DNA of 64,000 nt from Victivallis vadensis (GTDB taxonomy: Bacteria > Verrucomicrobiota > Lentisphaeria > Victivallales > GWF2-50-93), in assembly GCA_945883805.1 (NCBI GenBank), contig CAMCYE010000003.1, positions 25,859 through 89,858 on the forward strand. The letters run 5' to 3'. Position numbers and translations under genes: made by a program. Shown here one piece after another: positions 2,618 through 44,630 of this stretch. The notes under the pieces were generated by a model, which was given only the letters and a program-made list of their open reading frames with translations, made no database searches and was not told the DNA's origin. How positions within the stretch are numbered: position 1 is the stretch's first letter; every line of letters begins with the position of its first letter.

Positions 2618-3634
2618 ATGAAAATGCGCGACGTTGTTTTAAATCAGATCAGACATAGGGAAACCCCTGAATTCCCATACACTCTGCCTTTGGAAGAGGA
2701 AGTGGCGGAGCGCGTAGACGCACACTACGGCAATGCCGACTGGAGAAAAAAGATCAAGCCCTATATTATCGGCGTAGCCGCCGTTGACACAGATCCCAAA
2801 ACACCGATTGATTCGCGCTATGTCCGCGATGAATACGGCGGAATATGGCGTCAGGACATGCGTCCCTGGCATCTTGAGAAACCACCGCTCGCGGAACCCT
2901 CATTCGCCGGCTACGAATTTCCGAAACCTGAAATATTCTACCGTCCGGAATCCAAGAAAATGGCATTGCGGACCTGTGCCGACAATAAAGACAGTTTCAT
3001 TTACGGCACCTTGGGATGGGGACTTTTCGAAAGAAGCTGGAATCTCCGCGGCTTTGAGAATGTTCTTGTCGATTCCATTATGGAACCCGAATTCTTCGAG
3101 GAGATGCTGGACAAGCTTATGAATCTGTACCTCTCCTTTGTCGAATATACCGCAGATCTGCCGATCGATGCGATACTGTTCGGGGACGACTGGGGCGACC
3201 AAAGGGGAGTAATCATCGGACCGGAACGCTGGAGGAAGTTCCTAAAACCGCGCTGGGCGAAAATCTACAAAGCTGTCCACAGTCACGGAAAAATCGTCAT
3301 GAGTCATTCCTGCGGTTCGGTCTCTGAAATCATCCCGGATCTGATCGAAATAGGTCTTGATGTCCTTGAAAGCGTCCAGCCGGAGGCGGAAGGAATGAAC
3401 CCATATGAACTGAAAAAGAAGTTCGGGAAAAACATCTGTTTCTGGGGATGTCTCGGCAGCCAGAGCACGATTCCAAGAGGCACACCGGCAGAGATTCAGG
3501 CGGAAATCCGCAAACTCAGGAGGGAAATGAGTTGCGGAGGAGGATACATCCTTGCGCCGGCAAAGCCACTGCAACCCGAAACCCCGACAGAAAACGCAGT
3601 AGCCATTATTGAGGCGTTCACAGGGGAACCGTAA
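2618..3634 (+). CDS. uroporphyrinogen decarboxylase (URO-D) family protein, MtaA/CmuA-like Zn-type
   Basis: URO-D family pattern (ILFGDDWGDQRGVIIGPERWRKFLKPRW...KIVMSHSCGSVSEIIPDLIEIGLDVLESVQPEA...GGGYILAP) with an H-x-C motif (SHSCG). ATG 2618 lies 10 nt after AAAGGAG; the ORF track starts at TTG 2609. Confidence 0.8.
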   Translation: MKMRDVVLNQIRHRETPEFPYTLPLEEEVAERVDAHYGNADWRKKIKPYIIGVAAVDTDPKTPIDSRYVRDEYGGIWRQDMRPWHLEKPPLAEPSFAGYEFPKPEIFYRPESKKMALRTCADNKDSFIYGTLGWGLFERSWNLRGFENVLVDSIMEPEFFEEMLDKLMNLYLSFVEYTADLPIDAILFGDDWGDQRGVIIGPERWRKFLKPRWAKIYKAVHSHGKIVMSHSCGSVSEIIPDLIEIGLDVLESVQPEAEGMNPYELKKKFGKNICFWGCLGSQSTIPRGTPAEIQAEIRKLRREMSCGGGYILAPAKPLQPETPTENAVAIIEAFTGEP

Positions 3635-3690
3635 GGCAATTGGGTAATCGTTGGACTTGGATTCTCCCGTATAGTAATTCATGAAAGATA

Positions 3691-3944
3691 AAGAACAGCC
3701 CTTGCGGGCTTAACTACGAACAAGCAATTCGTTTGCAGTTAATCCGCCCTAGATACTTTCGGCGGAAGTCCTTCCACACAAGAAATAGATGGAGCCGACC
3801 AGACGGTCAGCGTTCCCGGGAACGCCAAGCGTCTGCCCCGAGCTCATGATGTGACTCGGGATCTGAGACGACTTGGCTTAAAAATATGCGAAAAGACTTC
3901 CGCCAAGCAAATCTAGGCGGATTAATGCTGCAAGGCATGTTCTT
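3691..3944. repeat. family-1 palindromic intergenic element, copy 1 (interrupted by insertion)
   Basis: Left part AAGAACAGCCCTTGCGGGCTTAACTACGAAC...GTTTGCAGTTAA and right part TGCTGCAAGGCATGTTCTT become collinear with the intact copy at 6363-6444 once 3743-3921 and one TTAA are removed. Confidence 0.75.
3743..3921. mobile_element. MITE-like non-autonomous insertion (179 bp) with terminal inverted repeats and TTAA target duplication
   Basis: Ends are TCCGCCCTAGATACTTTCGGCGGAAGTC and GACTTCCGCCAAGCAAATCTAGGCGGA, about 30 bp of imperfect inverted repeats. Flanked by TTAA at 3739-3742 and 3922-3925. The paralogous uninterrupted site at 6421-6426 reads GTTAAT. No ORF inside. Confidence 0.6.
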
Positions 3945-3961
3945 GCCGTTTGATTGCAACT

Positions 3962-4600
3962 TTAGCGAACCCTTCTTATTTCCGAGAACAGTGCCTTCAT
4001 CCTGCCGTGATCTTTTACTCCCGGCGCCGATTCCACTCCGCTACTGACATCTATTCCAAAAGGATGCACCGAACTCACGGCTTTCCCGATATTCCCGGAA
4101 TCCAGTCCTCCGGCAAGGATCACAGACCTCTTTAAGTTCTCAACTGCGAATTTCGCAATTTCCCAGTCTGCGGTCTTTCCGGTTCCGCCGTAGGCTTTAC
4201 CGCTATAAGTGTCAATCAGGAATTTATCGGCCGGATAATCCACATATTTCAGAATGTCGTCCTTGGTTTCAGGCCTTATCGCCCTCCAGACCTCTGCGAA
4301 TTTCGCAACTTCCACTGCGAATTCCGCAGTTTCGTCGCCGTGCAACTGGATCACGTTCACACCTGTGCCGACATATTCCCTCACCTCATCAATGGTCGGG
4401 TTGACGAAAACTGCAACCTTATGGACGTTTTCAGGAATTTTCCCTGCAATCATTTTCACGGAAGACGCAGTTATGAATCTTGGGCTTTTCGGATATGCGA
4501 CGAAACCGAGCGCGTCCGCGCCGGATTCGGAGGCGAAAAGCGCATCCGCGAGCCCTGTTATCCCGCATATCTTTACAAAAATTCCGTCTCTTTGCAGCAT
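3962..4600 (-). CDS. trpF: phosphoribosylanthranilate isomerase
   Basis: FVKICGITGLADALFASESGADALGFVAYPKSPRFI...IQLHGDET...IDTYSGKAYGGTGKTADW...ILAGGLDSGNI...FGIDVSSGVE are classic PRAI TIM-barrel motifs. Confidence 0.88.
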   Translation of the reverse strand: MLQRDGIFVKICGITGLADALFASESGADALGFVAYPKSPRFITASSVKMIAGKIPENVHKVAVFVNPTIDEVREYVGTGVNVIQLHGDETAEFAVEVAKFAEVWRAIRPETKDDILKYVDYPADKFLIDTYSGKAYGGTGKTADWEIAKFAVENLKRSVILAGGLDSGNIGKAVSSVHPFGIDVSSGVESAPGVKDHGRMKALFSEIRRVR

Positions 4601-4863
4601 TTTATCTTCCTAGGTCTGTGTTTTCATCATAGAGAATCTCCAGCCAGGTCTGATGTCTTGGGAGATACCCGTAATACCCCGTTGCTTGCGGCGTGGATAG
4701 GATGGACGTCAGGATATTCTTTATTTTCAAATAAATTGATTGCTCAAATTGTAATTTACAATAGGAAAATTACCTTATTTCTTTTAGGTTTCACAGGCAG
4801 AGACGTAGATTTTCGTTTTTACCTGAAATCAAACATGCTGAATCGTCAGTCCCAGGCAATAAT

Positions 4864-6327: not shown

Positions 6328-6362
6328 TATCCAATATCGAACACGGAATGTCAAAGTAAACA

Positions 6363-6444
6363 AAGAACAGCCCTTACGGGCTTAACTACCAACAAATTCA
6401 AATCCAGGAGTTCGTTTGTAGTTAATGCCGTAAGGCATGTTCTT
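6363..6444. repeat. family-1 palindromic intergenic element, copy 2 (intact, 82 bp)
   Basis: AAGAACAGCCCTTACGGGCTTAACTACCAAC-[20 nt loop]-GTTTGTAGTTAATGCCGTAAGGCATGTTCTT. The arms are complementary over ~31 nt apart from two symmetric 2-nt mismatches. Each arm also holds its own mini-hairpin (AGCCC-TTAC-GGGCT; ATGCC-GTAA-GGCAT). Confidence 0.8.
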
Positions 6445-6636
6445 AGATTATTTATTGAGCTGATTTCAAAACTCAGGAAACGACTCGGACAAGCCTCTCC
6501 CTTCATGCCAGAAACGGGCGTTAATATGGAAGGTTTTGCTTGTCAAAACCGCAGTTTTGAAATTGCCTCTGTTATTATCTGGGTTTGAATTACCGATGGA
6601 TCTTGGGTGTTCATCTCTTTACAATGGAGTTCTTCC

Positions 6637-15060: not shown

Positions 15061-15062
15061 GA

Positions 15063-15143
15063 AGTAACACAGGCTTTAGCCTGTAGTTAAAAGCAAAAAG
15101 AAGAATACAGGCAAAAAAATTGCAGGCTAAGGCCCGCATTACT
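15063..15143. repeat. family-2 palindromic intergenic element, copy A (81 bp)
   Basis: AGTAACACAGGCTTTAGCCTGTAGTTAAA-[spacer]-AATTGCAGGCTAAGGCCCGCATTACT. The arms are complementary apart from transition-type mismatches. Nearly identical to 37414-37489. Confidence 0.8.
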
Positions 15144-26407: not shown

Positions 26408-26545
26408 TTTTATCTTCTGATGTTTCGGATTTCGATATTATAGTCCGTTCCAATGCGGAAAAACTTTTTTTAAGTGCTATCCTATATCACCTGCAAAGAG
26501 CACGGCTGCAGAGTGCCGTGGCTATCCGCCGCGGCGGACTGTAGC

Positions 26546-37379: not shown

Positions 37380-37413
37380 AAATAAATTAATCGACCAAAG
37401 CGCCGCAACTTTA

Positions 37414-37489
37414 AGTAACACAGGCTTCAGCCTGTAGTTAAATTAATCTGGAAACACAAGGGAAATTGCAGGCTAAAGCCCGCATTACT
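37414..37489. repeat. family-2 palindromic intergenic element, copy B (76 bp)
   Basis: AGTAACACAGGCTTCAGCCTGTAGTTAAA-[spacer]-AATTGCAGGCTAAAGCCCGCATTACT. Confidence 0.8.
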
Positions 37490-39401: not shown

Positions 39402-39480
39402 GCCCCCCATCTCCTTTTTTCGGCTCTTTGAATATCCAATATCCAATCCGCCACGGCGGAAATATCCAACCGGCTAGGGG

Positions 39481-39528
39481 AAGTTCTAAAGTTCTAAAGT
39501 TCTAAAGTTCGGAAGTTCGGAAGTTCGG
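39481..39528. repeat. six tandem octamers (AAGTTCTA x3, AAGTTCGG x3)
   Basis: Read directly. Flanked by the ATATCCAA word triplet around a CCGCC-AC-GGCGG hairpin (39431-39470) and by AGTAGAAAAC/GATAGAAAAC. Confidence 0.85.
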
Positions 39529-44524: not shown

Positions 44525-44630
44525 AAAGGCGCACACTAAAGTGTGAACTCCAAAATTTGGAGTCCAGCCCTAGTCGCCTTTGGCGCCACCTGTGGCGGGT
44601 AAGCCTTTAGGCTGTTCTTTAAGAAGTAAC
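44525..44630. repeat. composite of repeat modules (family-5 unit, family-1 right-arm-like unit, family-2 left-arm start)
   Basis: CACACTAAAGTGTGAACTCCAAAATTTGGAGT, then TAAGCCTTTAGGCTGTTCTT (compare GCCGTAAGGCATGTTCTT), followed by TAAGAAGTAAC (compare AGTAACAC). Confidence 0.55.

Follow-up and report, generated by a model that had tools for sequence, protein, structure and literature searches.

What is the 179-bp sequence that splits a palindromic repeat at positions 3691-3944 of the 64-kb stretch of DNA analysed here (hereafter, the window), which family of mobile elements does it come from, and where exactly does its mobile part end? The repeat (hereafter, family-1) and its insert sit between the convergent 3' ends of a uroporphyrinogen-decarboxylase-like ORF and trpF. 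The features of the host DNA around the insert are as follows.

Ending at 3634: uroporphyrinogen-decarboxylase-like ORF (338/341 aa).
3691-3742, no strand assigned: left arm, spacer and start of the right arm of the family-1 host repeat, running to the first TTAA (3739-3742) and collinear with the intact copies.
3922-3944, no strand assigned: second TTAA (3922-3925) and the remaining family-1 right arm, which aligns with GTAGTTAATGCCGTAAGGCATGTTCTT of the intact copies.
3962-4600, minus strand: trpF (Pfam PRAI).
6363-6444, no strand assigned: intact family-1 palindrome, the reference "empty" copy in the alignment.

The closest named trpF homologues come from Victivallales MAGs (75-77% identity), which makes an uncultured member of Lentisphaerota/Victivallales the most likely source of the window. 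No database record was found for the upstream uroporphyrinogen-decarboxylase-like protein with either start codon tried. On the other side of trpF, in the spacer to a divergent GAF/SpoIIE gene, a 65-nt stretch (4667-4731) is 88% identical to a stretch of another Victivallales MAG (L068:983-1047), and may be either a conserved regulatory region or a repeat.

Family-1 is a dispersed intergenic palindrome of ~80 bp with two inverted hairpin units, the build of a REP/REPIN-like repeat. Each arm consists of GTAGTTAA, a GC hairpin and TGTTCTT, and the building block of family-1 itself can be described as "TTAA + GC hairpin". The arms score as terminator-like for whichever gene reads into them: on the minus strand, the hairpin AGCCCTTGCGGGCT of the left arm with GTTCTTT after it, and on the plus strand, the hairpin TGCTGCAAGGCA of the right arm with TGTTCTT after it. 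Three copies are present in the examined data, two in the window (starting at 3691 and 6363) and a third in a Lentisphaerae MAG (L005:1631-1708), and one compensatory change in the stem (TGCC..GGCA to TGTC..GACA) was seen among them. In the interrupted copy the two halves read AAAGAACAGCCCTTGCGGGCTTAACTAC...GTTTGCAGTTAA (3691-3742) and TTAATGCTGCAAGGCATGTTCTT (3922-3944), and the intact form is found at 6363-6444. When the 179 bp and one TTAA were deleted in silico, the restored sequence aligned end to end with 6362-6450 and with L005:1630-1715, the sole difference being an 11-nt indel in the central spacer. The alignment bears out the collinearity of the split and the intact copy that an earlier sequence-only reading of this DNA had described. 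Both intact copies are without the insert, contrary to what would be expected if the 179 bp were an ancestral part of the repeat, a possibility which the same reading had raised.

The insert (3743-3921) starts with TCCGCCCTAGATACTTTCGGCGGAAGTC and ends with GACTTCCGCCAAGCAAATCTAGGCGGA, which form imperfect terminal inverted repeats with a 1-nt gap, and TTAA lies on either side of it (3739-3742 and 3922-3925) where the intact copy has a single TTAA. Its interior contains the hairpins GCGTTCCCGGGAACGC and CCCGAG...CTCGGG. No ORF with a start codon inside the insert exceeds 38 aa, and one frame is free of stops over 57 codons. The inverted repeats, the paired TTAA, the internal hairpins and the lack of an ORF had all been reported from the sequence alone, and each was found as described. 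With 162-179 bp (depending on the limits chosen) and no similarity to a transposase, the insert has the size and content of a MITE, and no transposase gene was found anywhere within the 64-kb window. A repeat search showed the insert to be single-copy within the window, so its copy number had to be sought in other assemblies; for a 28-mer of the insert ends, 0 matches are expected by chance, as judged from shuffled sequence.

Searches for related ends started from a strict pattern, TCCGCC..TAGAT..GGCGGAAGTC. It had no match in the contigs of species-representative genomes and a single match in metagenome contigs, a 346-bp element (in contig L002) with ends as in the window insert and a different interior; no match to the end pattern was found in viral contigs. 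A looser pattern, TYGGCGGAAGTCYTTYCRCA, derived from the four known ends, recovered 83 loci, ~60 of them in Lentisphaerota/Victivallales MAGs. Many of the loci lie ~110 nt from contig ends, which is the signature of a multicopy IS that breaks assemblies. The parent IS and its deletion derivatives are represented by ~65 ends in Victivallales/Lentisphaerota MAGs, and the parent IS is abundant in these genomes. In the aligned ends, similarity stops at c/TAGAT... and ...ATCTA/g (the slash marks the boundary). The base preceding TA is C in ~63 of 67 related ends, and positions further out are weakly biased.

Taken together with the flanking TA and read inward (3892-3915), the right end of the window element is identical at 24 of 24 positions to ends in three contigs (L042, L086 and L087), and the left end agrees with the left-end type of the family over 25 of 26 nt, with one mismatch. 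L042 carries a 929-bp element that has both ends and encloses a 142-aa ORF matching Pfam DDE_3 (PF13358, E 1e-9), the database relatives of which include proteins annotated as "IS630 family transposase". L086 and L087 each contain a 230-aa DDE_3 ORF, preceded by an N-terminal ORF; after the 230-aa ORF comes ...GTAGATTTGCTTGTGCGGAAGGACTTCCGCCAAGCAAATCTAG, which has the window right end as its final 24 nt (identical part ...GACTTCCGCCAAGCAAATCTAG). The inverted repeats of the insert match, in other words, the ends of an IS that encodes a DDE_3 protein. No full-length IS with both ends on one contig was found among the recovered loci: L042 has both ends and a deleted transposase, and in L086 and L087 the gene is accompanied by the right end alone. 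Several MAGs contain complete short elements of 155-540 bp bounded by these ends, more than 10 of them having been found besides the window insert, and several of them keep remnants of the transposase C-terminus, which indicates that the MITEs arise from the parent IS by internal deletion.

IS630 itself reportedly favours the TA of CTAG (Tenzen & Ohtsubo 1991, cited in PMC2170065). Elements of the IS630 family insert at TA and duplicate it (PMC2170065). The c/TA...TA/g rule seen in the ends is the signature of IS630 (CTAG, with TA duplication) and marks the window element as an IS630-family MITE. We put the probability that the insert is such a MITE, meaning a gene-less, internally deleted derivative of an IS630-family (Tc1/mariner-type, DDE_3) IS, at about 0.85. 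The sequence-only reading had proposed a non-autonomous transposon nested in another repeat and could not name the parent transposase. The first part is upheld by the IS630-family ends, the lack of a transposase gene and the intact repeats without insert. The parent can now be named, by end identity, as an IS630-family (DDE_3) IS of Victivallales, and the longer, transposase-encoding element with the same ends that the reading suggested looking for is represented by L042 (both ends) and by L086 and L087, all with DDE_3 ORFs.

A further observation concerns the ends of the parent IS. Each of them is a ~41-nt palindrome, TA-GAT..GGCGGAAG-TC-CTTCCGC..ATC-TA (seen at every full IS end, for example L042:4657-4697), made of two inverted copies of the end sequence. 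The 41-bp unit also occurs solo, as c/TA...TA/g in unrelated DNA (L003:3587-3627, L007:3910-3950 and L083:5250-5290), with a further solo unit on the minus strand of L015 (901-941). The solo units may be mini-MITEs of 37 bp (plus TA) or solo ends, and could be the smallest transposable units of the parent-IS family.

The interior of the insert (~3780-3885) had no match among the 83 end loci. To allow for copies miscalled as coding, six-frame translations of the 179 bp were compared with proteins as well and gave one match, at the C-terminus of an AraC-like protein (P0241). The underlying sequence (L095:827-1004) proved to be a second copy of the window subtype; identity is ~87% along the entire unit, interior included. 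It lies at an unrelated locus, the 3' end of an AraC-like gene, to which it gives ~60 codons and a stop codon (P0241-P0243), and other alleles of the gene are without the element (P0244-P0246, L096 and L097). The 3' end of this gene exists in at least three alleles, which split right after GACCTTAAA (L095:760-1020, L096:2040-2151 and L097:2460-2775). A Logan contig (L001), from a sample with an identical trpF, stops at the terminal 30 nt of the unit (TCCGCCTAGATTTGCTTGGCGGAAGTCTTT, reading from its right end). Logan assemblies are built with k=31 and their contigs meet at k-1 overlaps (PMC12424806). A stop after exactly k-1 = 30 nt of the unit marks a graph junction, and so points to one or more additional copies in that sample. 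The L095 copy, the L001 junction and the other short elements with the same ends document that copies are dispersed over unrelated loci, and the worry expressed in the sequence-only reading that no further copies might exist anywhere is thereby removed.

The limits of the element are less straightforward than its affiliation. By the rules of the family, the mobile core would be 3752-3913, with TA at 3750-3751 and 3914-3915, and not 3743-3921. The corresponding parts of the insert are listed below.

3743-3749, no strand assigned: left collar TCCGCCC, outside the family terminus c/TA.
3750-3751, no strand assigned: TA, left copy of the presumed IS630-type target duplication (C at 3749 followed by TAG gives CTAG).
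3752-3913, plus strand: putative MITE core of 162 bp, oriented like the parent IS (left end first), with the left inverted repeat (~3752-3779), a unique structured interior (~3780-3885) and the right inverted repeat (~3886-3913).
3914-3915, no strand assigned: TA followed by G, right copy of the presumed duplication, on the same basis as 3750-3751.
3916-3921, no strand assigned: right collar GGCGGA, complementary to the left collar.

The c/TA...TA/g signature is found at 3749-3751 and 3914-3916, and the available empty copies fit the outer boundary. The limits first given for the element (3743-3921) lie outside the family terminus, the inner c/TA, and keep some weight: similarity to L095 starts exactly there, and family-1 is restored at this boundary. 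No orthologous empty site for the inner boundary was found among the trpF relatives and the AraC-locus alleles. For the closest trpF relative (L089, 97% identical), the contig ends 28 nt past the gene and the downstream sequence differs; the trpF relatives at 75% have a different neighbour gene; and the AraC-locus alleles L096 and L097 diverge from L095 and are not collinear downstream, so that they do not define the right boundary. No record was found for P0244.

Two origins can be considered for the left collar TCCGCCC: it may be host sequence that formed the 5' side of a GC hairpin (TCCGCC-loop-GGCGGA), or the left inverted repeat may reach 7 bp further outward. The same collar is present in the second copy in L095 and beside the element in L002, which belongs to a different MITE type. 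The element in L002 adjoins the same ATCCGCC, and other copies of that MITE type have unrelated flanks, which shows that adjacency to the motif can come from target choice. Intact TCCGCC-NN-GGCGGA hairpins are ~30-fold enriched, with 6 observed against 0.2 expected in 622 kb; they include two in the window and others at L037:1709, L037:4843 and L042:5643. In another Victivallales MAG, two such hairpins have TTAA directly after them. The hairpins in the window are the following.

26525-26538, no strand assigned: intact TCCGCC-GC-GGCGGA hairpin, a host motif like the proposed target.
39447-39460, no strand assigned: intact TCCGCC-AC-GGCGGA hairpin within another dispersed intergenic repeat.

Flanks of the type CGCC(C)/TA are ~6-fold enriched across the IS family, and the right-hand collars vary (GGCGGA in the window, GGCAGT in L095, and also GGCATC). 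We lean towards reading the collar TCCGCC(C)/GGCGGA and the second TTAA as a host "TTAA + GC-hairpin" module, the CTAG in the loop of which was probably the target.

Among the other explanations, one keeps the IS630-derived MITE and moves its borders. The mobile unit could be the full 179-181 bp, with inverted repeats 6-8 bp longer ((A)TCCGCC(C)TAGAT...), having entered an ordinary family-1 copy at its only TTAA, with duplication of TA (T-TA-A) or TTAA. This is possible, if unlikely. It would account for the restoration of family-1 when exactly 179 bp and TTAA are taken out, for the similarity of L095 that begins exactly at TCCGCCC (not at TA) and stops at GGC(G/A)G, for the allele in L096 that departs from L095 exactly at the start of TCCGCCC, and for the L001 junction 30-mer that begins at TCCGCC; outer TA dinucleotides are also available on both sides in the window. 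However, the transposase-binding part of the ends is as in the canonical elements, whose site of cleavage and duplication is the inner TA, and a cut 7-8 bp further out is not expected of IS630/Tc1 enzymes. Neither L095 nor L002 has TA or TTAA beyond the collar, the right-hand collars differ among copies, and the collar in L002 adjoins a MITE type whose other copies are without it. Somewhat more doubtful still is that an IS630 lineage has an extended preference for the CTAG apex of TCCGCC/GGCGGA REP hairpins, or that a composite "hairpin + MITE" unit is spread whole by a non-canonical mechanism and left the apparent TTAA duplication. Under either placement of the boundary the element is an IS630-family MITE, and a piggyBac-like TTAA mechanism is not supported.

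The presence of TTAA on both sides of the insert, as opposed to the single TTAA in the intact copy, had led the sequence-only reading to a 4-bp TTAA target duplication, and it would suit a TTAA-specific (piggyBac-like) element. An IS200/IS605-type hairpin element (PATE) might also be considered, as each end can fold as a TCCGCC...GGCGGA hairpin. Elements of the latter type have no inverted repeats, carry subterminal hairpins, derive from a Y1 or TnpB parent and make no target duplication. A parent of either kind, unrelated to IS630, is very improbable given that the ends are near-identical to those of DDE_3/IS630 IS. Not one of the ~65 related ends is flanked by TTAA, nor are the second copy in L095 and the element in L002, so the duplicated TTAA expected at every copy of a piggyBac-like element is lacking. 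Since ~63 of the 67 ends have C/TA and the other related copies are not flanked by TTAA, the 4-bp duplication is not a rule of the family, which inserts at TA, mostly in CTAG, and this part of the sequence-only reading is not supported. The clear, true inverted repeats, unlike IS200/IS605, and a parent that encodes DDE_3 likewise speak against a PATE. Equally improbable are readings without a mobile insertion, in which the 179 bp would encode a structured non-coding RNA or would have belonged to the palindromic repeat from the start. Predicted folding is strong on both strands (-95 kcal/mol, z -8.4 for minus; -77 kcal/mol, z -6.3 for plus), and the interior is 87% conserved in the second copy. 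However, the predicted fold is dominated and closed by the pairing of the inverted repeats, no Rfam family matched the whole window at the gathering score, and a search of 3400-4200 at E up to 10 returned chance-level hits only. The insert is absent from both intact family-1 copies, its second copy occupies an unrelated setting, within a coding sequence at its 3' end, and its ends belong to a transposon family.

Returning to the IS630-family MITE with the inner TA boundary, its history may be pictured as follows. A full-length IS copy elsewhere in the genome would supply the transposase in trans, which would bind the ~25-bp inverted repeats. Double-strand cuts at the ends of the element would excise it, and its 3' ends would be joined to a TA, preferably that of CTAG, the repair of which would duplicate the TA. 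The target here would have been a CTAG at the tip of a GC hairpin, TCCGCC-CTA-GGCGGA (the TTAATCCGCC-CTA-GGCGGATTAA module), with TTAA before and after it, and this hairpin would have been one module of the terminator-like intergenic palindromic repeat, with convergent 3' ends on either side. The collar and the second TTAA would then be host DNA and no part of the element, and a cognate transposase is presumably present in the source genome. With one mismatch at the left end and none over 24 nt at the right end, the window element may still be mobilisable in trans.

The element resembles those of the IS630 family (IS630, ISY100) and their MITEs in several respects: the parent IS has a DDE_3 transposase and inverted repeats of ~25-30 bp, insertion would be at TA with duplication and a preference for CTAG as for IS630 itself, and the short non-autonomous derivatives come from internal deletion. 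It differs from IS630 and ISY100 in its host phylum (Lentisphaerota/Victivallales), in that each end of the parent IS is itself a ~41-nt palindrome, and in the 6-7 bp GC collar of the window subtype. To our knowledge, IS630/Tc1-mariner-type MITEs of bacteria are well known and little attention has been paid to them in Lentisphaerota. IS that target the loops of REP or palindromic units include IS1397 and ISKpn1 (IS3 family) and REP-targeting elements of the IS110 family, and we know of such targeting so far for IS3- and IS110-family elements only. The window element is like them in lying in the apex of a small host palindrome within a dispersed intergenic repeat. It is unlike them in its transposase family and in that most members of its family have unrelated flanks, and the apparent hairpin specificity may simply reflect a CTAG that happened to lie in the loop. 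On the host side, family-1 resembles REPIN/BIME in its size of ~80 bp, its two inverted hairpin arms, its intergenic and dispersed occurrence and its conservation across genomes; its form is terminator-like, and it has three copies in the data examined.

Several other repeats were noticed in the window. A second palindromic intergenic family, AAGTAACACAGGCTTTAGCCTGTAGTTAAA ... AAATTGCAGGCTAAGGCCCGCATTACT, occurs at 15062-15143 and 37413-37489 and is built like family-1, with an outer inverted repeat, two GC hairpins and a TTAA motif. Downstream of ilvE, at 39420-39520, lies a dispersed repeat (GAATATCCAATATCC..TCCGCCACGGCGGA..GGGGAAGTTCTAAAG with short tandem units) that is also found at L097:2560-2660 and in relatives is partly translated into the AraC-like 3' end (C-terminus of P0244). 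A 46-nt stretch at 44532-44577 is 93% identical to L087:1086-1131, the DNA flanking the IS in that unrelated metagenome contig; it adjoins a solo family-1-like arm, AAGCCTTTAGGCTGTTCTTT (~44600-44620), and is probably yet another dispersed intergenic repeat. A 20-nt motif around the palindrome TGCGAA(A/T)TTCGCA has nine copies in the window (2538, 4144, 4294, 4315, 6659, 7231, 17483, 19533 and 44750), some of them within coding sequence. No tRNA was found in the 64-kb window.

Nothing suggests that the insert is more than a passenger in the terminator-like spacer that separates the two convergent genes. A previously unannotated repeat is now annotated and its parent family named, and the IS630 lineage with its MITEs proves to be widespread in Victivallales/Lentisphaerota, where MAG assemblies fragment at them. 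The locus is a clean case of one repeat nested in another, within a terminator-like element between convergent genes, and in a relative an AraC-like regulator gene owes its final ~60 codons and its stop to a copy of this MITE. The collar could, in addition, reveal a preference of an IS630-family transposase for hairpin-loop targets.
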